64,000 nt of DNA from Bacteroidota bacterium (GTDB taxonomy: Bacteria; Bacteroidota; Bacteroidia; Chitinophagales; BACL12): positions 466,030 to 530,029 of the forward strand of contig JADJIS010000003.1 of NCBI GenBank assembly GCA_016706865.1, written 5' to 3'. Shown piece after piece: positions 5,415 through 63,405 of the stretch; positions within the stretch are counted from its first letter, which is position 1; each line of letters opens with the position of its first letter. A program made the translations under genes and the position numbers. The notes beneath the pieces are model-generated. The model worked only from the letters and a program-made list of their open reading frames with translations. It was not told where the DNA came from and did not search any database.

Positions 5415-5460
5415 TTGAAATGTAGAAACAGCCGGAACCCGCCAGTTGGCGGACAGGCGC

Positions 5461-5944
5461 GGATGACGCTGATTGGGCGGAAAAAAAAGGATAAAAAAAG
5501 TTGATATAGAAGTATAAACAATAATAATATTACCCTAGTTAAATTAATTCGACACGTTTAAGTCCTGAAAGGACGACACATCTTGTAACCACGGACTTCA
5601 GTCCGTGCGAATTAAAAAAGGGAACACGGATGACGCTGATTGGGCGAAAAAAAAAGGATAAAAAAAGTTGTTATAGAAGTATAAACAATAATAATATTAC
5701 CCTAGTTAAATTAATTCGACACATTTAAGTCCTGAAAGGACGACACATCTTGTAACCACGGACTTCAGTCCGTGCGAATTAAAAAAGGGAACACGGATGA
5801 CGCTGATTGGGCGAAAAAAAAAGGATAAAAAAAGTTGTTATAGAAGTATAAACAATAATAATATTACCCTAGTTAAATTAATTCGACACGTTTAAGTCCT
5901 GAAAGGACGACACATCTTGTAACCACGGACTTCAGTCCGTGCGA
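5461..5944. repeat. Tandem repeat, 2.9 copies of a 167-bp unit
   Basis: GGATGACGCTGATTGGGCG recurs at 5461, 5628 and 5795 (period 167). Each unit carries the hairpins GTCC-TGAAA-GGAC and CACGGAC-TTCA-GTCCGTG and A-runs. Two more TTTA-loop hairpins follow at about 5987-6007 and 6023-6037. Confidence 0.9.
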
Positions 5945-14966: not shown

Positions 14967-15053
14967 GTTGTTTAATATTTACATGCAAAGAACTCGCTTT
15001 AATGTTACCTAATCTTTATTGTAACATTAGTTAAACATAAATCGAATGTAAAC

Positions 15054-15083
15054 AAAAAAGCCTCCCGAACGAATTCGGGAGGC
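15054..15083 (-). terminator. Intrinsic terminator after the 15109..17481 gene
   Basis: GCCTCCCGAA-CGAA-TTCGGGAGGC (15060-15083), with a T-run on the minus strand (A-run 15054-15059 on +). Confidence 0.8.
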
Positions 15084-15108
15084 TTACAATCATACTGCAA
15101 TTAACATT

Positions 15109-17481
15109 TTATTTACTTATTACTAACTCTTTGGTAACATTAACATTTTCACCGTTAACATTTACTAAATATATTCCTGATTCTAAGTTGCTTACAGAAA
15201 GGTCGATTGTAGTAAATCCATCAACCAAAATATTATTATTTTCATACACAACTTGTCCAACCATATTTACGATAGATACATTAACTGTTCCATTTGCTTC
15301 AATTGTCAATTCTACATTTTCAGAAGCAGGGTTAGGGTTGATCTGAATTAAATTCTCGTCAACAATAACATTGTTTTCTAAACGCAAAGGTAGTGTGGTG
15401 AAAGAAATAAATGCTGTTGGAGTAGATGCTCCACCACCACAATTGGTTATTATGCGCACTTGATATACTGATGAAGCGAGCAAGCCTGTAATTGTTTTTG
15501 TGTTAGTAAAAGCAGTTGGAAGCGAAGTCCAAGGTTTAACCGGAAATTTGCGATATTGAACTGTATAATTATTTGTTCCACAAACGTCAGACCAATTTAT
15601 AATTGCTGAACTTGAAGTTATTCCTGTTGCAACAATACCTGTAACTTGGCTACAAAGAGCAGTTGTGGCAGTTTTTTTAGCCCATGCACTTTTTTCTGCA
15701 GTTGCACATTTCGATCTTATTTGAAAATCATAACTTGTGTTTGCTAATAAACCTGTAAAGGTAAAGTTTGTAACAGCACCAACATTCACTGGAGATGAAT
15801 AAGTTCCACCAGTAATTGCATAACGTACTTCATAAGTAGTAGCACCCGGCGCAGCATTCCAACTTATTTTAGCACTGCAATGCTTAATTTCAGTTGCTAC
15901 TAATGCAGTTGGTTTTTGAACAGTAACATCATTAACTGTGTATGTTGCAGATGCGGAACATCCATTACTTGTAACAGTAATTGTATAACTTCCTGCTGCT
16001 AAACCTGAACGGTCTTGCGTGGTTGGACCATCGCTCCAGGCATAAGTATAAATTCCAACTCCACCTGAAGGTGTTACATCAATTGAACCTGTATTTGGAC
16101 AAGTCATGCTGCTAACTGTACCTGCAATTGTCGGATTATTATTAATTCCGGGAGTTGAATATGGTGTTGATTGAGGATCAAAATTAACCCATGATTCATC
16201 CGTCCAGTTGTTGGTAGTTGAAAATGCACCAGCATAACTTGTGGCAGTGAAAAAAGGATCACTTAATAAACCTGCAAAATATGTTCCGATAGTTGTAGGA
16301 GCCGAGCCTGCAGTTGGACGTGGGTCAGGGTTTGATAAATTAAATGCATTAACCAAACCTACTCCTGAATTTAAAAGAATAGTTTGATTACCGTTTGAAG
16401 AACCATATGTGTCAATATTAAAACCTGCATCGCAAGTGGTGCATAAATAATCGTCACCATTGCCGGAAAGAATATTGTTTTTGAATTGTAAATTATCTGC
16501 AGCAGCATTTAATGAAGTGTTTGTTCCTTCAATTTTAAATCCAGCTTCAGGATAACCCATGATAATAGAATTATAAATAGATGTCATTGTATTTCTTCTT
16601 TGATGAGCACCTCTTTTATAGTTTACGTTTATTACATCTCCTGTATTTACTTTAGGACCTGCAATGGTGATATTTGAAAATAATCCTCTTGAGATGGGTG
16701 TATTTCCTGAACCAGTTGCATCATTATCAGATTCAAATCCATTTGAACCTGAAACATCTCCAACATTTGGATCACGTAAAACATAACCGAATTGTACTTT
16801 TCCGGAATAACCAAAGTCAGTATCAAAATCATCGTCAAATCCACGGTATGCAATTAAATATTTAGCATTTACAGATCCACCAAACCATTCAAATGAATCA
16901 TCACCTGAATAAGAAATTTGAATGTGATCAATAGTAGTTCCTGAACCAACTCCACCCATGGTTAAACCATTAATTTCATTACCCGGTACAAAAGGAATAC
17001 CTGCAAATTCGATACGCACATATTTAAAAGTACCACTGTTGTCGGATGCGTTTGCTCCGCCATAAGCGCCATCTCCTTCAGGTGTGTCAACTCCTCCTTC
17101 AATAATTGCACTTCCACCAGGTACATTGATCGGAGCTTCTCCTAAAATAATAACTCCACCCCAATCACCATAGGTTCTTGAACCCGCAGGTTCATTAGAA
17201 GTAAATACAATTGGCTCGCAAGAAGTACCTACTGCATTAATGTTTCCGGTTTTTGTGATAATTAAAGTTCCTTTAGTTGCCTTGTCTCCTTTAATAATAG
17301 TGCCTTCTTCAATAGTTAAGGTTGCACCATCTTCAACATAAACAAAACCATTTAATTGATAAATATTGTTGTTGGTCCACGTTGTGTTGGTCGTTATCTC
17401 GCCTGATACGAAAGTAACCTGAGCTTGCATCGCGGTGAATCCTGTCGCGACTGTCAGTAAACCTAGTAATAATTTTTTCAT
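15109..17481 (-). CDS. Secreted beta-helix-like protein with FN3 domains and T9SS sorting domain; paralog of 10220..12088
   Basis: 790 aa with a signal peptide (MKKLLLGLLTVATGFTAMQAQ). The conserved N-terminal about 470 aa is shared with 10220..12088. Two FN3-like segments (KISWNAAPGATTYEVRY; IINWSDVCGTNNYTVQY). C-terminal INPNPASENV...GIYLVNV. Confidence 0.88.
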   Translation of the reverse strand: MKKLLLGLLTVATGFTAMQAQVTFVSGEITTNTTWTNNNIYQLNGFVYVEDGATLTIEEGTIIKGDKATKGTLIITKTGNINAVGTSCEPIVFTSNEPAGSRTYGDWGGVIILGEAPINVPGGSAIIEGGVDTPEGDGAYGGANASDNSGTFKYVRIEFAGIPFVPGNEINGLTMGGVGSGTTIDHIQISYSGDDSFEWFGGSVNAKYLIAYRGFDDDFDTDFGYSGKVQFGYVLRDPNVGDVSGSNGFESDNDATGSGNTPISRGLFSNITIAGPKVNTGDVINVNYKRGAHQRRNTMTSIYNSIIMGYPEAGFKIEGTNTSLNAAADNLQFKNNILSGNGDDYLCTTCDAGFNIDTYGSSNGNQTILLNSGVGLVNAFNLSNPDPRPTAGSAPTTIGTYFAGLLSDPFFTATSYAGAFSTTNNWTDESWVNFDPQSTPYSTPGINNNPTIAGTVSSMTCPNTGSIDVTPSGGVGIYTYAWSDGPTTQDRSGLAAGSYTITVTSNGCSASATYTVNDVTVQKPTALVATEIKHCSAKISWNAAPGATTYEVRYAITGGTYSSPVNVGAVTNFTFTGLLANTSYDFQIRSKCATAEKSAWAKKTATTALCSQVTGIVATGITSSSAIINWSDVCGTNNYTVQYRKFPVKPWTSLPTAFTNTKTITGLLASSVYQVRIITNCGGGASTPTAFISFTTLPLRLENNVIVDENLIQINPNPASENVELTIEANGTVNVSIVNMVGQVVYENNNILVDGFTTIDLSVSNLESGIYLVNVNGENVNVTKELVISK

Positions 17482-19342: not shown

Positions 19343-19360
19343 ATCGTAATCAAATTTCAA

Positions 19361-19815
19361 CTCAGAACGTAGAACCTGAATGAAGTCGCAGTCACAGTCA
19401 CAGTATTCAGTTTTGACATGAGCAAAATTTTACTCCGAATAAAACAATTTCAAACGGTTGAACGATACGTCGATAATTAATCTTGAACACAGAACTCAGA
19501 ACCCAGAATAGAACTCATCCCTAAACTTTCAGCTCCGAATCCACAGCGTTCGCTACGCGTAACACTGTGGGGACACTTTATGGGGTGGTGAACTTAGAAC
19601 CTAGAACCTGCCAGACGCTGACACAGTCGCAGGCAGGCTCAGAACTAAAACATGTAGTGATCGACGAAGGAGATCTACTACATGTCAGAACCCAGAACAA
19701 TAATATCGAATAAAGAACAAGGAATAAAGAACAACAAACAAACCACACACGAGTGATTTTCCTCCGTCTTGAACCCAGAACGCAGAACCCAGAACCCAGA
19801 ACTCAGAACGAAGAA
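19361..19815. repeat. CAGAAC-type heptamer blocks interleaved with three unique hairpins
   Basis: Blocks at 19361-19380, 19481-19517, 19591-19606 and 19767-19815. A 6-mer run GTCACA lies at 19388-19405. Hairpins: CCACAG...CTGTGG (19541-19570), CCTGCC...GGCAGG (19607-19637), ACATGTAGT...ACTACATGT (19650-19685). Confidence 0.85.
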
Positions 19816-19818
19816 CAA

Positions 19819-22128: not shown

Positions 22129-22228
22129 GTATTTGGTAATTTGGTAAGTGGATAATTTGGTAAATGTATAACCCGAAAAATTAAACCCATTTCTCGGAGC
22201 GAGATCGCCATTTGCTAATTTGCTAATC
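22129..22228 (+). repeat. Composite element copy D: AATTTGGT 8-mers, CTCG-GAG-CGAG hairpin, ATTTGCTA 8-mers
   Basis: The core at about 22169-22228 is roughly 85-90 percent identical by eye to 23291-23350. Confidence 0.8.
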
Positions 22229-23121: not shown

Positions 23122-23260
23122 ACTGCAAATTTTATCAATAATGGTTCAAATAGTGTTCCATTACTCCAAAGTCTTGCTCACCAGCTATTATCTCCCAAAG
23201 AAAAATTGAAGATCACCGGGATTTGGGGAAAATTCGCACAGTTGTACATACACATTTTTT

Positions 23261-23367
23261 AATTTGTTAAGTGCTTAATTTGATAATTGTACAACCCCGA
23301 AAATTAAACACATAGCTCGAAGCGAGATCCCCATTTGCTAATTTGCTAATTAGCTAATTTGCTAATC
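23261..23367 (+). repeat. Composite element copy E (same family as 22129..22228)
   Basis: AATTTGNT 8-mers, then AACCCCGAAAATTAAACACATAGCTCGAAGCGAGATCCCC, then ATTTGCTA/TAGCTA 8-mers. Confidence 0.8.
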
Positions 23368-23432: not shown

Positions 23433-23438
23433 TATTCG

Positions 23439-23512
<74 letters not shown>

Positions 23513-24509: not shown

Positions 24510-24697
24510 CAGCAGTTTCCTGATCAAATAAAACATTACATATCCGGGCAATCCCCGAAATCCATATTAATCCGTGATTCCAATGTTGTGGCTTCCCGAA
24601 GACCTCTCCATTGTGCAGCAGTTTCCTAATCAATTAAAACATTACAAATCCGCGCAATCCGCGAAATCCATAATAATCCGCGATTCCAATGTTGTGG
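24510..24697. repeat. Direct repeat, two 82-bp copies at a 106-bp period
   Basis: CAGCAGTTTCCTNATCAA...ATTCCAATGTTGTGG at 24510-24591 and 24616-24697, with internal AATCCGCG-type short repeats. Confidence 0.85.
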
Positions 24698-24717
24698 ATT
24701 CGCGCAATGTTTGCATG

Positions 24718-29702: not shown

Positions 29703-29775
29703 CAGAGGACATCCATTTAATTATATTCAAATTTTCATACGTATTGTAATAAAAGTTTAAAATAATATTTAAGTA

Positions 29776-29843
29776 TTAATTCGAAGCAATTCGCTTCAAT
29801 GTTTCAAACTGCCCACTGCCCACTGCTCACTGTTGACTTGTTA
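29776..29843 (+). repeat. Hairpin element TAATTCGAAGCAATTCGCTTCAATGTTTCAAA plus CTGCCCA heptamer block
   Basis: GAAGC-AATTC-GCTTC hairpin, then CTGCCCA CTGCCCA CTGCTCA CTGTTGA CTTGTTA (29809-29843). Same family as 46116-46378. Confidence 0.8.
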
Positions 29844-30726: not shown

Positions 30727-30750
30727 ACATCCAATTTTTTTGGTGATGCG

Positions 30751-31268
30751 TGGTAAAAAATAATAACCACAAAGCACAATGGAACACACAAGGGACACAA
30801 AGTGTTATTTGTATTTATAGTGTTCTTTGTGGGTTTCCTTGTGTCCATTGTGGTAAAAAAAAATAACCACAAAGCGCACAATGGAACACACAAGGGACAC
30901 AAAGTGTTATTTGTATTCATAGTGTTCTTTGTGGGTTCCCTTGTGTCCTTGTGGTAAAAAAAATAACCACAAAGCGCACAATGGAACACACAATGGACAC
31001 AAAGTGTTATTTGTATTCATAGTGTTCTTTGTGGGTTTCCTTGTGTCCATTGTGGTAAAAAAAAATAACCACAAAGCGCACAATGGAACACACAAGGGAC
31101 ACAAAGTGTTATTTGTATTCATAGGGTTCTTTGTGGGTTCCCTTGTGTCCCTTGTGGTAAAAAAAAATAACCACAAAGAGCACAAGAGAACACACAAGGG
31201 ACACAAAGTGTTATTTGTATTCATAGTGTTCTTTGAGGGTTCCCTTGTGTCCCTTGTGGTAAAAAAAA
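30751..31268. repeat. Tandem array, 5 copies of an approximately 101-bp unit (long imperfect hairpin plus A8-9 run)
   Basis: TGGTAAAAAA recurs at 30751, 30851, 30952, 31053, 31155 and 31257. In each unit ACACAAGGGACACAAAG pairs with CTTTGTGGGTTCCCTTGTGT, and the outer ACCACAA pairs with TTGTGGT. Confidence 0.9.
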
Positions 31269-31530
31269 ATAACTCTATCGCATTTGAGCACACCGGTATC
31301 TTTTATTAAATTTGAGTTAGCACAATAATTTGGCACAAGATTTCGTATTTGTGTGTAATATGAATAAAAACCACGTTGCCGGATGTTTATAATACTGTAC
31401 ATCAGGCAATTACTTAACTAATAAGTTATACGATTATAGCCAATATCTCTACGCTTTTAGCTGTTTATTTGTATTTATAATTTAGGCAAGCTGAATCAAT
31501 ATTGTAAATTTATTTAAATAGATACTAATT

Positions 31531-32624: not shown

Positions 32625-32957
32625 GGGGAAATAGGAAGTAGGAAATAGGAAGTAGGACATAGGATTGACATAGGACATGGGAAATCGGACATAGGATTTG
32701 ATTTGATTTTAATTGAGAATTAATTTCTAATTGGAGATTTTTTTCAGGCCGTAAATTATGCCTCGGAGGAGTGAGGCTCTCGCTCTTCGCGAGGGTCTCA
32801 CTAAAGGTATAGAAAGCAGAAAGGACATGGGAAATCGGACATAGGATTTAATTTGATTTTAATTCAGAATTAATTTCTATTTGGAGATTTTTTTCAGGCC
32901 GTAAATTATTCATCGGAGGAGTGAGGCTCTCGCTCTTCGCGAGGGTCTCACTAAAGG
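32625..32957 (+). repeat. TAGGAAG/TAGGACA heptamer block followed by two 135-bp direct repeats, each with a 13-bp-stem hairpin
   Basis: The heptamers at 32625-32701 begin 1 nt after the exbD stop. Copies at 32673-32807 and 32823-32957 have a 150-bp period. Hairpins GTGAGGCTCTCGC-TCTTC-GCGAGGGTCTCAC lie at 32771-32801 and 32921-32951. Confidence 0.9.
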
Positions 32958-32997
32958 CATAACAATACAACATAGGGATAGAAAAAGACATGTCATA

Positions 32998-33215
32998 TCA
33001 AAATTTCGCCAGAAATTTAAACTCCTATTTTGGTATCAGGAATCAAGTATCAGGAAAACAAACTCAGTGATTTGAAAAAAAATCGAAGAAATTTCAACTC
33101 CTTTCTCATTTCTCATATTTTGGTATCAGGAATCAAGTATCAGGAAACACATAATAGTGTTTAGCAAAATTTCGCCAGAAATTTAATCTCCTTTCTCCTC
33201 TCTCCTCACTCCTTT
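32998..33215 (+). repeat. Three copies of the composite AAATTTCG-NN-AGAAATTT hairpin element
   Basis: Hairpins at 33001-33018, 33075-33094 (degenerate) and 33167-33184. GTATCAG heptamers lie at 33033-33060 and 33123-33150. CT-rich tails read AAACTCCT.../AATCTCCTTTCTCCTCTCTCC. Confidence 0.85.
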
Positions 33216-34210: not shown

Positions 34211-34345
34211 AAGTAGGACATAGGACCTAGGACATAGGACCTAGGACCTAGAACATGACAAGGACATGACAAGGACATGACAAGGACATGACAAGGACAG
34301 AAAAGAGTGGGGTAAATTTCGCAAGAAATTTAAACTTCTTTTCCA
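34208..34345 (+). repeat. AGGACMT heptamers, 4 x 11-mer CATGACAAGGA, then AAATTTC-GCAA-GAAATTT hairpin element
   Basis: The heptamers at 34208-34256 start with the TAG stop itself. The 11-mer x4 lies at 34254-34297. The hairpin lies at 34314-34331 with tail AAACTTCTTTTCC. Confidence 0.88.
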
Positions 34346-34398: not shown

Positions 34399-36543
34399 TT
34401 ATTGCTTCACAAATTTTTGCGACCATGAATTCATTCCATCTTCTATTTTAATTATATAAATACCACTTCCAACATTTTGCAAATCGATAATGAAACTGTT
34501 TTCAGATGTAATTATTGTTTGCAGAATTTGACCTATCGCATCGGTTAAATAAATTGATTTTTCGGTAGAGAAATCTGTTTCGATCGCGATGTAATTAAAT
34601 GCAGGATTTGGGTATATTGAAAAAGTATTTTCTACTGTATTGTTAGCTTCTCTGCATGGCACACTCACAGTAATTGTATTTGAATTTTTGAAACAACCGG
34701 TAGCTATTTTTGTTACACGGCATTTATAATTTCCGGTGGTAGTGGCTATATAGTTTGTTGATGTTGCACCGGATATTACTGATGCACCTTTGTACCATTG
34801 ATAGCTGCTTGCTCCTACAGGAACCTCGGTTAAGGTTACACTTCCTCCTGCACAAAAGGTAGTTGCACCCGTTGCGGTTATAGATGCACCGGGGTTTTTA
34901 TTTACAATTACTGGAATTAAAGTTGAAGTTGCTGTGCCACATATACTTGTTGTTTCACATGTATAATCCCCTTTTTTAGTAACTGTATACGAGGTACCGG
35001 TTGCACCTGCAATATTTACTCCGTTCTTTTTCCACTGGAGAGATGTGCCAGAATGTATTGCAGTTAAAACAACAGAACCTCCCTGACAAAACGTTGTAGC
35101 TCCGCCGGCAGAAATGGAAATGGTTAACACAACTCCATCATCAATTATTCCATTGCAATCATCATCCAAAGAATTACATGTTTCCGGAAAAGGTGTGCAA
35201 GCAGGTCCAACCAGTTTTACAACCCAATAATCACTACCACCTAAGTTTGCTTCGGTTTTATCACCGGAAATTCCGGATTGTGAGTATCCCCCGAGAATAT
35301 ATCCGCTATCAGTGGTTTGTTGGAGGGTAATCAGATAATCATAATGACTCCCTCCAATGGTATTCTGCCATTCGATGGCACCAATGCTGTTTATTTTCAC
35401 TACCCAATAATCATTAGCACCCAACAATGTTTCAGTTTTATCACCGGAAATACCAGAAAAGGAGTATCCCCCCATAATATATCCACCATCGGTGGTTTGT
35501 TCGATGGATATCAGAAAATCATTATTGTTCCCACCAATGGTATTTTGCCATTCGATTGCTCCGCTGCCGTTGAGTTTCACTACCCAATAATCATAATCAC
35601 CCAAGGAAGCTTCGGTTTTATCCCCGGAAATACCAGACCCAGAGTATCCCCCCAGAATATAACCGCCGTCGGTGGTTTGTTGAATGGAAAACAGCAAATC
35701 ATCACTGCTCCCCCCAATAGTATTCTGCCATTCGATTGTACCGCTGCTGTTGAGTTTGACTACCCAATAATCGGAAATACCACCCAAAAATGCTTCGGTT
35801 TTATCACCAGAAATTCCGGAATTAGAGTATCCACCAAGTATATATCCGCCATCGGTGGTTTCTTGTATAGGAAAAAGGAAATCATCACCGCTTCCCCCAA
35901 TTGTATTCTGCCATTCGATTGCGCCGATACTGTTTAATTTCACTACCCAATAATCATCAACACCCAACGATGCTTCGGTTTTATCCCCTGAATTACCGGA
36001 AGTGGAATATCCCCCCAGTATATATCCGCCATCTGTGGTTTGTCGGATTGAACGCAATTGATCATCATGACTACCTCCAATGGTATTCTGCCATTCGATC
36101 GTGCCGCTGCTATTTAGTTTCACTACCCAATAATCACCCAAACCCACTGAACCTTCGGTTTTATCGACCGAAATACCAGAATAGGAATATCCCCCTATTA
36201 TATATCCGCCATCGGTGGTTTGTTGGATGGTAGCCAGATAATCTCCAGCTCCTCCGCCTATAGTATTCTGCCACTCAATAGTGCCGCTACTGTTAAGTTT
36301 CACTACCCAATAATCATAACTACCTGATAAGAGTTCGGTTTTGTCACCGGAAATACCGGAGCTGGAGAATCCACCTAGTATATATCCGCCATCGGTGGTT
36401 TGTTGTAAAGACCGCAGATAATCAAAATTACTCCCTCCAATAGTATTCTGCCATTCGATTGCAGGTGCCTGTGCAAATAAGTAATTAGTAATAACTAAGA
36501 AGAAGGAAAAAATCAGCGGCGATATTAATTTCAGTTTATTCAT
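34399..36543 (-). CDS. Secreted repeat (propeller-like) protein with Cys-rich MopE-like motif, Ig-like domains and T9SS sorting domain
   Basis: 714 aa. Eight to nine repeats of about 47 aa (IEWQNTIGGS..D.L.SIQQTTDGGYILGGYS.SGISGDKTE...DYWVVKLNS.G). CNSLDDDCNGIIDDG. C-terminal IYPNPAFNYIAIE...GIYIIKI. Confidence 0.88.
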   Translation of the reverse strand: MNKLKLISPLIFSFFLVITNYLFAQAPAIEWQNTIGGSNFDYLRSLQQTTDGGYILGGFSSSGISGDKTELLSGSYDYWVVKLNSSGTIEWQNTIGGGAGDYLATIQQTTDGGYIIGGYSYSGISVDKTEGSVGLGDYWVVKLNSSGTIEWQNTIGGSHDDQLRSIRQTTDGGYILGGYSTSGNSGDKTEASLGVDDYWVVKLNSIGAIEWQNTIGGSGDDFLFPIQETTDGGYILGGYSNSGISGDKTEAFLGGISDYWVVKLNSSGTIEWQNTIGGSSDDLLFSIQQTTDGGYILGGYSGSGISGDKTEASLGDYDYWVVKLNGSGAIEWQNTIGGNNNDFLISIEQTTDGGYIMGGYSFSGISGDKTETLLGANDYWVVKINSIGAIEWQNTIGGSHYDYLITLQQTTDSGYILGGYSQSGISGDKTEANLGGSDYWVVKLVGPACTPFPETCNSLDDDCNGIIDDGVVLTISISAGGATTFCQGGSVVLTAIHSGTSLQWKKNGVNIAGATGTSYTVTKKGDYTCETTSICGTATSTLIPVIVNKNPGASITATGATTFCAGGSVTLTEVPVGASSYQWYKGASVISGATSTNYIATTTGNYKCRVTKIATGCFKNSNTITVSVPCREANNTVENTFSIYPNPAFNYIAIETDFSTEKSIYLTDAIGQILQTIITSENSFIIDLQNVGSGIYIIKIEDGMNSWSQKFVKQ

Positions 36544-38060: not shown

Positions 38061-38358
38061 GACACGGGATATGGGACACGGGATATAGGACACGGGACAC
38101 GGGACACGGGACTGGACATAGGACATTGGAAATGTGACATAGGAATCCAAAATTGTATCGGGTATAATGTATCAGGAAAGCAATTGGTGGGATTTGCAAA
38201 AATTTCGCAAGAAATTTAAACTCCTTTCTTGTGAGTATCAAGTATCAGGTATCATGTATCAGGAAAACAAACGGTGGGATCAAATCAAATTTCGAAGAAA
38301 TTTAAACTCCTTTCTCCTTTCTCCTCTTTCCTTTCTCCTCTCTGCTCTCTCCTCTCTC
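38061..38358 (+). repeat. GACACGG/CATAGGA heptamers, two composite AAATTTCG..AGAAATTT hairpin elements, CCTYTCT heptamers
   Basis: The heptamers at 38061-38144 (12 units) start on the first nt after the rarA stop. Hairpins lie at 38200-38217 (GCAA loop) and 38287-38303. GTATC-type heptamers lie at 38233-38267. The CT block at 38307-38358 abuts the stop of the minus-strand gene. Confidence 0.9.
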
Positions 38359-42398: not shown

Positions 42399-42408
42399 GG
42401 GGGAAAGG

Positions 42409-42494
42409 GGAAATAGGAAGTAGGAAGTAGGAAATAGGACTTACTTATCTTAGGTCCTACGTCTTCCTACTTCCTACTTCCTACTTCCTATTTC
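42409..42494. repeat. Long inverted repeat built from TAGGAAG heptamers (about 31-bp arms)
   Basis: Left arm GAAATAGGAAGTAGGAAGTAGGAAATAGGAC (42409-42440), right arm GTCCTACGTCTTCCTACTTCCTACTTCCTACTTCCTATTTC (42454-42494). It starts 11 nt after the GH16 stop. Confidence 0.9.
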
Positions 42495-42531
42495 ACATTT
42501 TTCCTTACCTTTAACCTAAATTCATAATCAA

Positions 42532-46115: not shown

Positions 46116-46378
46116 ATAATTCGAAGCAATTTGCTTCAATATTACAAACTGCGACTGCGACGGGCCCCCTGCCCCAAAGGGGAGTTAAGTTTTTCAAAAA
46201 TTAAAAATATAATTTCGAAGCGAAAATCTCCAATGTTACAAACTGCCCACTGCCCACTGTTGACTGTTTACTGCCCCAAAGGGGAGTTAAGTTTTTCAAA
46301 AATTAAAAATATAATTTCGAAGCGAAAATCTCCAATGTTACACACTGCCCACTGCCCACTGCTCACTACCCCTACTAC
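46116..46378 (+). repeat. About 2.7 tandem copies (93-102 bp) of the element ATAATTYCGAAGC...CAATRTTACAAA + CTGCCCA heptamers + CCCC-AAA-GGGG hairpin
   Basis: Unit starts at 46116, 46209 and 46311. CTGCCCA blocks at 46243-46277 and 46345-46372. CCCCAAAGGGG at about 46172-46182 and 46274-46284. Confidence 0.88.
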
Positions 46379-58546: not shown

Positions 58547-58801
58547 ACCAAAAGACTTTGGTTCTTCGTCAAAATAAAGCTGTTCAAATGCTTTATTGTG
58601 AGATCCATATATCCAAATCTTCGAATTTTCGCACTTCTCTCCCCCCTAAAACCTTCATTTATGTCAGAGTTTTTCCTAGAAAAGCTATTTTTCTGAAATT
58701 TTGTCTGACCTTTGCGCCTCAATTAGCAAAAATGCCCTGTGGCACAATATCTGACAGGCGGGCGGTAACACAAAACTTACTTAATCAACAAAAAATCAAA
58801 T

Positions 58802-59110
58802 ATGGCGAAGAAAATCGAAACGGCTAAGGCCAAAGTGAACATCACGATCAAACCTTTGGCTGATCGGGTATTGGTATTACCTGCGGAAGCAGAAACCGTT
58901 ACTAAAGGTGGTATCATAATTCCCGATACTGCAAAAGAAAAACCACAAAAAGGCACTATAGTAGCTGCAGGTCCGGGTAAAAAAGATGAACCTGTAACTG
59001 TAAAAGTTGGCGATTCCGTTCTCTACGGAAAATATGCCGGAACTGAAATAAGTGTTGATGGAAAAGAATACCTAATCATGCGCGAATCTGACATTTTTGC
59101 CATTCTTTAA
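58802..59110 (+). CDS. groES: Co-chaperonin GroES
   Basis: 102 aa with [44 protein letters not shown]. Confidence 0.95.
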
Positions 59111-59166
59111 TGGTCGGAACGTCACTCAATTATCAAATTAATAAACTAACAAATTACCAAATATAA

Positions 59167-60804
<1,638 letters not shown>

Positions 60805-60805
60805 G

Positions 60806-60864
60806 ATGGTGAGTGGGGAGTGGTGAGTAGTGAGTAGGGTGGTGAGTAGAAAGTAGTGAGTGGG
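60806..60864 (+). repeat. GGTGAGT-type heptamer block starting 2 nt after the groEL stop
   Basis: ATGGTGA GTGGGGA GTGGTGA GTAGTGA GTAGGGT GGTGAGT AGAAAGT AGTGAGT. Confidence 0.85.
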
Positions 60865-60914
60865 ATCGAAACCCGAAAAGCATCGCTTCGAATTTATACT
60901 TTAATGAAATTAAA

Positions 60915-60947
60915 ACCTTTCTGGAGTTTTTCAGGAAGGTTTTTTTA
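60915..60947 (+). terminator. Intrinsic terminator of groESL
   Basis: ACCTTTCTG-GAGTTTTT-CAGGAAGGT followed by a T7 run (60941-60947). Confidence 0.8.
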
Positions 60948-60985
60948 TGAATGAGTAATGAGTTATGAGTAATGAGTTTGATCCT
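60947..60985 (+). repeat. ATGAGTR heptamers ending in GAGTTTGATCC
   Basis: ATGAATG AGTAATG AGTTATG AGTAATG AGTTTGATCC. The same module occurs at 1462-1489 and 1512-1545. Confidence 0.85.
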
Positions 60986-61037
60986 GCTCACATTGGTGCT
61001 TTGAATTCCTTTTTGAAAATTTTGCTAACCTGATGCT

Positions 61038-61191
61038 CAGAACCCAGAACTCAGAACCCAGAACTCAGAACCCAGAACTCAGAACCCAGAACTCAGAACC
61101 CAGAACTCAGAACCCAGAACTCAGAACCCAGAACTCAGAACCCAGAACTCAGAACCCAGAACTCAGAACCCAGAACTCAGAACCCAGAACT
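61038..61191 (+). repeat. Perfect tandem array (CAGAACC CAGAACT) x 11, i.e. 22 heptamers in 154 bp
   Basis: Counted directly. There are no mismatches and the two units alternate strictly. The array ends 19 bp before ATG 61210. Confidence 0.97.
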
Positions 61192-61194
61192 CAT

Positions 61195-61202
61195 TACCTT
61201 TG
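61195..61202 (+). promoter_or_regulatory. Candidate Bacteroidota -7 promoter box (TAnnTTTG)
   Basis: TACCTTTG lies 7 nt upstream of ATG 61210, which would imply a leaderless or very short-leader mRNA. No TTG -33 element is visible inside the repeat. Confidence 0.3.
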
Positions 61203-61209
61203 CAATCCA

Positions 61210-63405
61210 ATGACCTCCGTCTTTTTATTCACCCCACCCTTCACCCAACTCAATACCCCTTATCCTGGTACCGTTTATTTAAAAGGCTTTTTAAATACAC
61301 GCAATATTTCCTGTTATCAGGCGGATCTTGGAATTGAAGTTACAGACACCATTTTTTCAAAACAGGGTTTGATCAATTTATTTGAAGCAGTAAATACAAC
61401 GGCCGAAAACATATCAGAAAATTCCTCAAGAATTATTGCTCTTAAAGAAGATTATATCAATACAATTGATCATGTAATGCATTTTTTGCGTGGGAAAAAT
61501 CCTTCTTTAGCTCATGTAATTTGTTTAGGTGATTTTTTGCCTGAAGCATCGCGATTCGAACAGATTGAAGATCTCGAATGGGCTTTCGGAACCATGGGAA
61601 AACAAGACCAGGCGAAATATCTTTCAACTATGTATCTGGAAGATATTTCAGACCTTATCCGTGAATGCGTGGATCCCTTTTTTGGATTTAGCAGGTACGC
61701 AGAGAAACTTGGTAGATCGGCAAACAGTTTCGATGAACTATACGAGTTATTGCAGGGCCCAAATACCTATGTTGACGGCATTTTACTAAACATCTTAAAA
61801 CAAAATTTGGACAATGTCCAAATTTCTATAGTTGGTATTTCCGTTCCTTTTCCGGGAAATTTATATTCCTCATTCCGATGCGCGCAATTCATCAAAAAAC
61901 ATTACCCGCATATAAAAATTATTATGGGAGGAGGATTTCCAAACACCGAATTGCGATCTCTTTCCGACCCGCGTGTTTTTGAATTTTATGATTTTATTTG
62001 TCTGGATGACGGCGAAGCACCTCTTGAAAATATAATTAAATTTTCGAAAGGGGAGATACAACTAAACGAATTAAAAAGAACATTTACCTTAATTGATGGA
62101 GTGGTTACCTATATTAATAATCCGGCAACTAAAGATTATAAACAAGGGGAGATAGGTACACCGGATTACAGTGATCTGTTTCTGGATAAATATATTTCGG
62201 CAATTGAGATCATGAATCCCATGCACAGTTTATGGAGCGATGGACGCTGGAATAAGCTTACCATGGCGCATGGATGTTATTGGGGTAAATGTACTTTCTG
62301 TGATATTTCATTGGATTATATAAAACTCTACGAACCTGTTGCAGCATCGCTTTTAGCCGATAGAGTAGAGGAACTAATTAAACAAACAGGACAATCCGGA
62401 TTTCATTTCGTAGATGAAGCAGCACCACCGGCATTAATGCGTGCATTTGCCATTGAAATTATTCGACGCAACATTAAAATAAGTTGGTGGACGAATATTC
62501 GTTTCGAAAAAAGTTTTACAAAAGACCTTTGTATTTTATTAAAAGCAAGTGGATGTATTGCAGTGTCGGGAGGATTGGAAGTTGCCTCCGACAGATTATT
62601 GGAATTAATTCAGAAAGGTGTGACTGTCGCACAAGTTGCAAAGGTTAATCGCAATTTTACGGAAGCGGGAATTATGGTACATGCATATTTAATGTACGGT
62701 TTTCCCACTCAAACTACGCAGGAAACTATTGATGCACTTGAAATGGTGCGACAACTATTTTCTGCGGGAATAATGCAATCGGGGTTTTGGCATCAGTTCG
62801 CAATGACTGCCCACAGTCCTGTCGGATTAGATCCATCATTTTTCAAAGTAAAAAAAATAAATGATACTATTGGAACCTTTGCTAATAACGACATCGAATT
62901 TATAGATGATACAAGAACCGACCATGAAAAATTCAGTTTCGGATTAAAAAAATCGTTGCTTAATTACATGCATGGAATTGGGTTGGAAGATGATCTTCAA
63001 AATTGGTTTGATTTTAAAATACCGAAAACTTTAATTCCACCTAATTATATTAAAAGAGTTTTAACGGAAAAGGATTTTAAGGATATTAATCCCTCAACAA
63101 AAATTATCTGGTTGGGAAATCCGCCTGTAATGGAAAATGTATCATCAACAAAAAAACCATCCGATATTGAAATGGTCAGACTTTTGTTTGTTGATAAAAC
63201 AACAGAATTCAATATTTTATTACAAAAAGATCATGGATTGTGGCTGACTAAAGTTTTGCCAAAACTTTCCGTAAATAATTCCTTAATAATGACATTAAAA
63301 GAACTACAGGAAACTTATACTACCGCTGGCCTGACTCAATTTGAACAATTCATTAACAGCAAGCCTATGGCGGGTTTGTTCGATAATGGATTATTACTCC
63401 TATAA
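61210..63405 (+). CDS. B12-binding-domain radical SAM protein
   Basis: ATG 61210 (MTSVFLFTPPFTQLNTPYPG). Cys cluster MAHGCYWGKCTFCD. An N-terminal Rossmann-like B12-binding-type region. The track start 61033 translates the heptamer array. Confidence 0.88.
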   Translation: MTSVFLFTPPFTQLNTPYPGTVYLKGFLNTRNISCYQADLGIEVTDTIFSKQGLINLFEAVNTTAENISENSSRIIALKEDYINTIDHVMHFLRGKNPSLAHVICLGDFLPEASRFEQIEDLEWAFGTMGKQDQAKYLSTMYLEDISDLIRECVDPFFGFSRYAEKLGRSANSFDELYELLQGPNTYVDGILLNILKQNLDNVQISIVGISVPFPGNLYSSFRCAQFIKKHYPHIKIIMGGGFPNTELRSLSDPRVFEFYDFICLDDGEAPLENIIKFSKGEIQLNELKRTFTLIDGVVTYINNPATKDYKQGEIGTPDYSDLFLDKYISAIEIMNPMHSLWSDGRWNKLTMAHGCYWGKCTFCDISLDYIKLYEPVAASLLADRVEELIKQTGQSGFHFVDEAAPPALMRAFAIEIIRRNIKISWWTNIRFEKSFTKDLCILLKASGCIAVSGGLEVASDRLLELIQKGVTVAQVAKVNRNFTEAGIMVHAYLMYGFPTQTTQETIDALEMVRQLFSAGIMQSGFWHQFAMTAHSPVGLDPSFFKVKKINDTIGTFANNDIEFIDDTRTDHEKFSFGLKKSLLNYMHGIGLEDDLQNWFDFKIPKTLIPPNYIKRVLTEKDFKDINPSTKIIWLGNPPVMENVSSTKKPSDIEMVRLLFVDKTTEFNILLQKDHGLWLTKVLPKLSVNNSLIMTLKELQETYTTAGLTQFEQFINSKPMAGLFDNGLLLL

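Follow-up and report, generated by a model that had tools for sequence, protein, structure and literature searches.

Tandem arrays of 7-bp units have been described in several bacteria, and it is against these that we consider here an array of 22 perfect heptamers lying immediately upstream of a B12-binding radical SAM gene, in a 64,000-nucleotide stretch of a Chitinophagales genome (contig JADJIS010000003.1 of GCA_016706865.1, positions 466,030 to 530,029; hereafter the window). A tract of a shorter unit, the (TAAA)n of Neisseria meningitidis nadA, lies upstream of the -35 element, between NadR/IHF regulator sites and the promoter of this adhesin gene. Heptamers of the GGGNATC type form many intergenic arrays per genome in Xanthomonas and Nostoc, with a strong non-coding bias, and their G-rich strand is the coding strand within ~50 bp after stop codons and the non-coding strand just upstream of open reading frames (ORFs) (Rehm et al. 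2015, PMC4692102). In such heptamer-rich genomes the arrays lie between the same genes of related species, vary widely in length and sequence, and are unlinked to gene class, with phase variation judged unlikely (PMC4692102; PMC4679880). Intergenic direct repeats of the heptamer TAACTGA are known from Beggiatoaceae, Cyanobacteria, and a few Bacteroidetes (MacGregor 2015, PMC4679880). The (ATCTTTC)n tract upstream of hmw1A and hmw2A of Haemophilus influenzae, which encode a surface adhesin, is transcribed within the 5' untranslated region (5'-UTR), where it forms a hairpin with a G-rich arm that is processed by RNase III (PMC12721329).

The array of the window had been proposed, from the sequence alone, as a candidate phase-variable (contingency) locus. 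What survives of this proposal is a polymorphic array beside a -7 promoter box; a frame switch, a switch in promoter geometry, a suitable class of gene, and specificity to the radical SAM gene do not. The array behaves as a member of the genome-wide intergenic families of heptanucleotide simple sequence repeats (SSRs), and departs from contingency loci in its position and in the class of the adjacent gene. We hold, with moderate confidence, that it is a slippage-driven intergenic satellite that does not switch the radical SAM gene ON and OFF.

The array, its promoter and the start of the gene

The array occupies positions 61038-61191 (154 bp), with the units CAGAACC and CAGAACT alternating strictly as (CAGAACC CAGAACT)x11 and with zero mismatches on direct reading. 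Tandem Repeats Finder (TRF) places it at 61036-61193, with a period of 14, 11.3 copies, 100% matches, 0 indels, and a score of 316, making it the top-scoring short-period (7-21 bp) array of the window and confirming the 22 flawless alternating units of the original prediction. The accompanying remark that the other heptamer blocks are degenerate is essentially right, with the other period-7 arrays 69-96% matched or perfect over only 2-3 units. The long tract of identical, slippable units that characterises contingency loci is therefore present in these 22 perfect units. On the + strand, which is the sense strand of the radical SAM gene, the array is C-rich and G-poor (A67 C57 G22 T13), carries eleven YC dimers at 14-nt spacing, and contains no stop codon in any frame because each T precedes C. 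RNA of the array region is unstructured (fold z = +0.59), and an Rfam scan returned nothing above threshold, with chance-level matches only. The array is followed by CAT (61192-61194), the sequence TACCTTTG (61195-61202), seven further bases, and ATG 61210, so that 3 bp separate the array from the TACCTTTG box and 16-18 nt from the ATG. These surroundings had been described correctly throughout.

The gene itself (61210..63405, + strand) encodes a class B, B12-binding radical SAM enzyme of 731 aa, with a Pfam match to PF04055 and a weak match to PF02310. Matches to the B12-rSAM methyltransferase families of NCBIfam are all sub-threshold, and a PDB sequence search with the enzyme gave no match. 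Orthologues are found across Bacteroidota, at least 600 in each of two collections, with identities of 63-89% and alignments beginning at query residue 1-8. The best 120 of 8000 protein-database matches are 728-748 aa long and cover 99-100% of the query. One of these two scans, of metagenome contigs, informs both the start codon and the promoter box; its closest orthologue has 68% identity among the matches listed. Since the orthologues have this length and align from residue 1-8, ATG 61210 is, as judged from these alignments, the start of the coding sequence (CDS). The start thus lies 3' of the array, and the repeat tract is not within the ORF as it is in one class of contingency loci. Nor does the gene belong to those typically switched, which encode surface, host-interaction, or restriction-modification functions; its product is a conserved, cytoplasmic enzyme of housekeeping type.

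The TACCTTTG(CA) element at 61195..61202 (+ strand), 7 nt before the start codon, corresponds to the -7 box of Bacteroidota promoters. A lone TAnnTTTG match is uninformative in an AT-rich window, where 74 are found against 93 expected, but the element is conserved in orthologous loci, with TAnnTTTG occurring within 70 nt upstream of the start in 112 of 156 loci compared with 1 of 156 coding control segments. The box lies mostly 18-23 nt from the start in these orthologous loci, and alignment of them shows conservation of TTTGC(A) and of an A/T-rich AATAT just upstream. A TACCTTTG-type box at exactly 7 nt from the ATG is shared by the window and by the related loci L005, L169, L170, and L178. 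This supports the earlier assignment to the Bacteroidota -7 consensus, and TACCTTTG is very probably a real -7 promoter box. Of the features of a Bacteroidota primary-sigma promoter, the conserved TAnnTTTG is present and a -33 TTTG ~19-21 bp upstream is absent: the aligned orthologues carry no information content at -33, and there is no TTG in the array region. Transcription of the radical SAM gene would begin from the predicted TACCTTTG promoter, 7 nt upstream of ATG 61210, giving a leaderless or near-leaderless mRNA and a product of 731 aa.

The array lies wholly upstream of this box, spanning the -33 region out to about -175, and so fills the -33 and upstream region as had been noted. No second promoter element is found beyond its far side, and the tract is consequently not placed between promoter elements as in another class of contingency loci, although sites for factors bound far upstream may exist. 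The four units next to the box are identical in all alleles, with the exception of a single C-to-T change in the sister lineage described below. As the array is entirely upstream of the box and these box-proximal units are constant, gain or loss of units cannot change the spacing of the core promoter and only shifts far-upstream DNA, contrary to the proposal that a change in unit number would alter promoter geometry. The box and the start codon are both independent of unit number, which argues against an ON/OFF phase-variation switch; any effect of the array on expression would be quantitative at most.

Other assemblies of the locus were located by exact look-up of the 731-aa protein. The window, part of a 1.43-Mb contig, has 22 units, and a 226-kb contig of GCA_016708595.1, differing from the window by 19 single nucleotide polymorphisms (SNPs) and 3 indels in 22 kb, has an identical array of 22 units. 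A 253-kb contig of a more diverged strain (JGI 3300056825, L002) has 21 units, one CAGAACT having been lost and the alternation broken. Over 22 kb of this contig the near-identical part has no indel outside the array, two other small indels falling in SNP-dense divergent patches, and L003 has none but the array. Contigs assembled from short reads give 8 units (SPAdes; L003, L166), 10 units (MEGAHIT; L165), and 12 units (the lineage of protein P0004). We rejected these values as array lengths and treat them as k-mer collapses that set lower bounds only, with 56 bp and 70 bp being the shortest right-phase arrays that a de Bruijn graph outputs at k = 55 and k ~57-67, and 84 bp (12 units, P0004) the minimum for a 35-bp higher-order period at k = 55. 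The composition and order of units in the short-read contigs are still informative. An exact-flank search of metagenome contigs for further alleles gave 0 matches.

The array shifts faster than substitutions accumulate in its flanks, yet slowly enough that strains ~0.1% apart share its length. Between strains, no indels occur in the degenerate arrays of these 22 kb. A perfect (TCGCAG)n hexamer array of ~10 units, ~2.5 kb past the end of the window (L004, ~15446-15510), is 8 bp shorter in GCA_016708595.1. Stable degenerate arrays together with a varying perfect one are as expected if instability tracks purity. The claim that flawless units imply recent or ongoing expansion by slippage is supported: the array is recently homogenised and prone to slippage, and the number and order of its units differ between close relatives, with strand slippage itself a presumed mechanism.

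Turnover of the site and the wider heptamer family

Comparison of the locus between related genomes, proposed earlier as a check, reveals arrays that differ in unit number, order, and sequence. In the sister lineage (protein P0004, seven samples) the left flank is ~99% identical and the radical SAM gene only 88% identical, and the array reads (CAGAACC CAGAACT CAAAACC CAGAACT CAGAACT)x2 followed by two units, giving at least 12 units with a 35-bp higher-order period. L005 and L178 (88%) each have 15 units of mixed CAGAACC, CAGAACT, and CCGAACY in differing orders, L169 (84%) carries an array of another heptamer, (CTCATTC)x4, at this position, and L170 (83%) has three decayed units there. The array in the spacer between groEL and the radical SAM gene is thus kept, with variation in length and sequence, in the window, L002, the P0004 lineage, L005, L178, L169, and L170. 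The site is held by turning-over heptamer arrays across the clade, with the box, the 7-nt gap, and the ATG constant, and so constitutes a natural allelic series of 22, 21, at least 12, and 15 units plus a replaced array. Among the more distant orthologous loci only 4 of 156 have a period-7 array upstream, and the array is therefore not a conserved regulatory feature of the radical SAM gene. Alignment of window positions 58700-63400 with L172 shows the 3' end of groEL and the spacer to be 98-100% identical up to the array, and the radical SAM gene 73-97% identical per 100 bp, which suggests a recombination boundary at or near the array and a mosaic or recombinant history for the sister lineage.

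Arrays of this period are frequent throughout the window. A period scan of the 64 kb found 23 arrays of period 7, compared with 0, 0, 1, 0, 0, and 1 for periods 5, 6, 8, 9, 10, and 11 respectively. All 23 (1375-61194) are intergenic in a window that is 85% coding. The density of period-7 arrays per 100 kb is 36 in the window, 22 in close relatives, and 3-5 in distant Bacteroidota loci, with the claim of a heptamer family resting on the 64 kb and a few related loci. Recurring unit families comprise CAGAACY (also at 1553-1714 and 19360-19818), GGAARTA/GGACATA, GGTGAGT/AATGAGT, ACTGCCC, CTCCTYT, and AGTATCA. Many of the arrays adjoin stop codons or promoters, and the flanking genes are unrelated. 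Because similar arrays flank unrelated genes, the presence of an array is a property of the genome and is not specific to the radical SAM gene.

The arrays are also polar, being G-rich on the sense strand after stop codons and C-rich before start codons in 21 of 23 cases (12 stop-proximal G-rich, 9 start-proximal C-rich; binomial P = 3.3e-5 for at least 21 of 23). Both exceptions lie more than 90 nt from a gene end. Within 60 nt of one, the rule has no exception among 12 arrays, and 3 of 3 further arrays in L004 and L169 conform as well. The array before the radical SAM gene, C-rich on the sense strand, is one of those that conform. Since the rule holds for genes on both strands, the polarity tracks gene orientation and not replication. 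Intergenic DNA outside the arrays shows the same skew more weakly, with C exceeding G upstream of 24 of 33 genes and G exceeding C downstream of 18 of 29. This weakens polarity as proof of array function: the polar arrays may reflect a general bias in composition, which they amplify or which filters them, and need not have a function themselves. The features of heptanucleotide SSR families of the long SSR (LSSR) or STRR-like type, namely an excess of period 7, dispersed non-coding arrays, polarity, and retention between the same genes, are all found here. A literature search returned nothing specific on heptamer repeats in Chitinophagales, Saprospiraceae, or Flavobacteriia.

The array upstream of the radical SAM gene is one of several repeats in the spacer (60805-61209) that follows groEL, the Cpn60 gene (59170..60804, + strand; ORF of 544 aa, PF00118 in the called genes). 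Directly 3' of the groEL stop lies a degenerate G-rich heptamer array of GGTGAGT, GGGGAGT, and AGTGAGT units (60806..60863, + strand; TRF 60807-60863, period 7, 8.4 copies). It is followed by a dispersed TTCGAAGC box, present as AATTCGAAGCGA at 60883..60894 on the - strand and seen by pattern search beside heptamer arrays elsewhere; boxes of this type give 7 matches against 2.2 expected, including those at 29778, 46118, 46212, 46314, and 60883(-), and blastn ties the box region to 29767-29787, 46200-46223, and 46302-46325. The intrinsic terminator of groESL, a hairpin of AAAACCTTTCTG and CAGGAAGGTTTT followed by T7 (60912..60947, + strand), is an inverted repeat (I4) of 12 nt with 92% complementarity, and RNA of the region 60805-60960 folds at -39 kcal/mol (z = -3.28). 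A scan for sigma-70 and terminator consensus sequences found nothing, also missing this otherwise evident terminator, which stands between groEL and the array under study.

Beyond the terminator, TRF identifies a fourfold AATGAGT heptamer array (60950..60978, + strand) that pairs imperfectly, in inverted orientation, with the 3' end of the radical SAM array. Inverted repeats I1, I2, and I6 with 61167-61197 link the two; their 10-nt core (GTAATGAGTT / AACTCATTAC) has 100% complementarity, and over 24 nt the pairing is 83%. When rotated, CAGAACT reads ACTCAGA, agreeing with ACTCATT at 5 of 7 positions, and the (CTCATTC)x4 array of L169 is the complement of GAATGAG. By sequence comparison, the radical SAM array plausibly descends from an inverted partner array of AATGAGT type.

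A unique spacer of 59 bp (60979..61037, + strand), which holds a chance ATG at 61033, separates the two arrays and is homologous to the left arm of a 60-bp palindrome in L169 and L005. This palindrome of ~60 bp, GAAATTTTGGTTAATTGTAGAGACGCAATGCATTGCGTCTCTACAATTAACCAAAATTTC, is flanked in these relatives by the AATGAGT array on one side and the focal-site array on the other, being near-perfect in L169 (~2740-2800) and imperfect in L005; the window lineage retains its left arm only (GAAAATTTTGCTAACC, 61015-61030). The sequence AAAATTTTG (61017-61025) was considered as an upstream promoter for a leaderless start at ATG 61033 and rejected, as the invariant T is absent and the TTTG is too near for a -33/-7 pair; the segment is, furthermore, homologous to the palindrome arm of the relatives.

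The window contains further repeats of other kinds. Composite modules of ~100 bp, dispersed and in tandem and in both orientations, occur at 46169-46361, 29760-29840, and 60806-60947, and in L004 at 15000-15450. Each joins a heptamer array to a box of TTCGAAGC type, a stretch rich in A/T, and a GC hairpin (e.g. CCCCAAAGGGG), which is also the layout of the groEL terminator region; the modules may be copies of a terminator-like cassette that is mobile or duplicating. A palindromic box, AAATTTCG-NN-AGAAATTT, occurs 4 times on the + strand against 0.58 expected (33001-33018, 33167-33184, 34314-34331, and 38200-38217), each copy followed by pyrimidine heptamer arrays of AAACTCCTTTC type. At 42399-42501, a stop-to-start spacer is filled by two arrays, (GGAAGTA)n and its complement (TACTTCC)n, which make up a long, imperfect inverted repeat and so a potential long hairpin or terminator. 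The one further flawless short repeat of several copies in the window is an 11-mer array (ACATGACAAGG, x4.3, 100% matches) at 34253-34299, which immediately follows a heptamer array.

Octamer arrays (ATTTGGTA / ATTTGCTA) surround a common core, CCGAAAATTAAAC...CTCGAAGCGAGATC, in two neighbouring spacers (22131-22227 and 23254-23366), one of which also has a tRNA-Met gene (23438-23512, - strand). Large intergenic tandem repeats are found at 5460-5944 (167 bp x2.9, 98%), 30750-31273 (102 bp x5.2, 95%), 32672-32961 (150 bp x1.9), and 24510-24701 (106 bp x1.8). A 180-bp repeat (35213-36463, x6.9, 77% identity) lies inside an ORF of 714 aa (34399-36543, - strand), the product of which is probably a secreted or type IX secretion system (T9SS)-type repeat protein.

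Explanations for the array

As a slippage-driven satellite, the array would be the purest, and presumably youngest, member of a strictly intergenic heptamer family in a wastewater Chitinophagales lineage. It would occupy the spacer from the groESL intrinsic terminator to the core promoter of the radical SAM gene, a spacer that is probably untranscribed, and would grow and shrink by 7-bp and 14-bp steps through strand slippage or unequal exchange. Its left bound would be set by unique sequence, and its right, 3' edge may be fixed by selection on the -7 box.

Several observations sit less comfortably with this interpretation. The polarity of the arrays is significant, at 21 of 23, and in all lineages compared, the most distant at 83% protein identity, a heptamer array abuts the -7 box; together, site occupancy and polarity hint at constraint or function beyond neutrality. 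In the window lineage the array also takes the place of the A/T-rich AATAT element of the orthologues, and promoter strength could therefore depend on it. Furthermore, the trustworthy lengths of 22, 22, and 21 units come from three assemblies only, the consensus sequences of which hide heterogeneity within populations.

The alternative that makes most of the polarity is possible, if unlikely: that the array is a guard or insulator for Rho loading, a selected, length-tolerant C-rich tract which releases polymerase reading through from groESL before it occludes the radical SAM promoter. Antisense transcripts would meet the same fate at the G-rich arrays that follow stop codons, and unit number would tune insulation with no switching. 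Rho utilisation (rut) sites, as defined from E. coli, comprise a bubble of C over G of more than 78 bp in which (YC)N9-13 occurs at least 4 times (Nadiras et al. 2018, PMC6144790). The array region has all of these sequence features, with a bubble longer than ~80 nt, 11 (YC)N12, and low RNA structure, although the criteria are enterobacterial and may not be those of the host. The + strand bubble at 60967-61336 extends over 370 nt with an area of 6083 %*bp and holds the strongest + strand 78-nt C-minus-G window of the 64 kb, and the strongest C>G window of the - strand is the complement of the array following the groEL stop (60806-60863). The 11 consecutive (YC)N12 units exceed the enterobacterial requirement, in RNA that is unstructured, and under the polarity rule 21 of 23 arrays, 12 of 12 within 60 nt of a gene end, and the 3 of L004 and L169 would give C-rich RNA in the direction of the adjacent gene.

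Against this, the weaker skew in non-array intergenic DNA allows that the arrays merely amplify local composition, bubbles of C over G are common and poor predictors alone, and the criteria derive from E. coli and Salmonella and not from the Rho of Bacteroidota. The array, moreover, follows an intrinsic terminator, such that only read-through RNA would cross it, and no work tying tandem arrays to Rho was found in the literature. That the array and its heptamer relatives as a whole are selected guard tracts, with Rho loading oriented against transcripts entering adjacent genes, appears unlikely on the present analysis. Were it true, heptamer SSR families would gain a function, the polarity in Xanthomonas and Nostoc would be explained too, and a 154-bp array would shield a leaderless radical SAM promoter from the highly expressed groESL, with unit number setting the strength of insulation.

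A quantitative contingency locus, or volume control, in which unit number sets the distance or phase of upstream DNA or of a bound factor relative to the core promoter and thereby grades radical SAM expression, is doubtful. It is a milder version of the promoter mechanism first proposed, with parallels in the hmw1A and nadA tracts. The array does abut a well-supported -7 box, is polymorphic between strains, and replaces the usual A/T-rich upstream element, and the length of a heptamer SSR grades expression at hmw1A (PMC12721329). However, promoter elements do not flank it on both sides, and copy number leaves the proximal promoter sequence unchanged. The hmw1A repeat sits in a transcribed 5'-UTR hairpin, whereas here the box is downstream of the array and the array RNA is unstructured. 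The 19-SNP strain pair has 22 units in both members and the more diverged strain is one unit off, which is slow for a contingency locus. Additionally, the gene encodes a conserved cytoplasmic enzyme, and comparable arrays flank unrelated genes.

Translational phase variation, in which ATG 61033 is the real start and an RTQNSEP/RTQNPEL extension is switched by changes in unit number, is very improbable. It was correctly noted that the + strand is stop-free and that ATG 61033 is in frame at the present length, with the ORF list giving 790 aa against 731 aa, an addition of 59 aa. Two public gene calls follow this frame, one of 790 aa (GCA_963852155.1; 61033-63405) and one of 762 aa (ERZ964754, 10-unit contig L165, 151-2439), but identical DNA yields the 731-aa form in other pipelines. 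ATG 61210 lies 177 nt from ATG 61033 with 22 units and 93 nt with 10, both in frame, and 170, 107, and 79 nt with 21, 12, and 8 units, all out of frame, so that the frame is not conserved. These out-of-frame versions keep the native ATG and promoter intact, and nothing is switched off. An in-frame length is a one-in-three chance, and the stop-free state follows from unit composition, which makes the 790-aa ORF a by-product of an array without stop codons. No orthologue carries the extension, all beginning at the position of ATG 61210; in L005 the same upstream ATG opens an ORF of 16 codons that closes before the array, and the conserved promoter box lies downstream of ATG 61033. The 59-aa N-terminus is thus discarded, and the 790-aa and 762-aa calls are gene-caller artefacts of reading through a stop-free repeat, a recurrent annotation error that yields spurious 'proteins'.

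That an assembler made the perfect array or its length is scarcely credible: short-read assemblies do distort it, giving 8 and 10 units, but these values are minimum lengths for the assembler k-mer, collapsed from a longer array, and the independent 1.43-Mb and 226-kb contigs have an identical 22 units, with 21 on the 253-kb contig.

Comparison with known repeat systems

In its context the locus itself is ordinary. Moderately interesting is the lineage-wide, heptamer-specific system of polar arrays with many units to which it belongs, in a phylum where only scattered cases have been noted. An uncultured Chitinophagales lineage of activated sludge carries dense, period-7-specific, intergenic arrays with the polarity of Xanthomonas and Nostoc in another phylum, and the sharing of this polarity across phyla by many unit sequences argues that heptamer arrays have a general cause, be it mutational or tied to transcription.

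Among the systems associated with regulation, the nadA tract resembles the array in being an SSR upstream of, and not within, the core promoter, with sites of NadR/IHF type not evident at the array. The array shares with rut sites (PMC6144790) a C-rich, G-poor, unstructured sequence of more than 78 nt with regularly spaced YC dimers; natural rut sites, however, are not tandem repeats. The best functional analogue with a 7-nt unit is hmw1A, which likewise has a long perfect upstream array whose unit number varies between isolates. The 5'-UTR hairpin arrangement of hmw1A is absent here, with the array lying upstream of the -7 box, lacking RNA structure, and standing beside a gene for a conserved cytoplasmic enzyme, and its variation between strains looks slow. 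The TAACTGA repeats are similar as intergenic heptamer direct repeats that often lie immediately upstream of start codons, but have another unit sequence and, unlike the present array, which is upstream of the promoter box, are placed in the 5'-UTR.

More broadly, the arrays of the window are akin to the cyanobacterial STRR repeats and to the heptanucleotide 'long SSRs' of Mrazek et al. (2007), in so far as the latter are described in PMC4679880. They differ from the GGGNATC repeats of Xanthomonas and Nostoc in having many unrelated units instead of one dominant motif and no G-tracts capable of forming a G-quadruplex, and in their host, an AT-rich metagenome-assembled genome of Chitinophagales (Bacteroidota), in which the array upstream of the radical SAM gene shows a strict two-unit alternation of 14 bp. 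With the GGGNATC repeats they nevertheless share the 7-nt unit, the many non-coding arrays, the same polarity, persistence between the same genes, and the lack of any link to surface or virulence functions.

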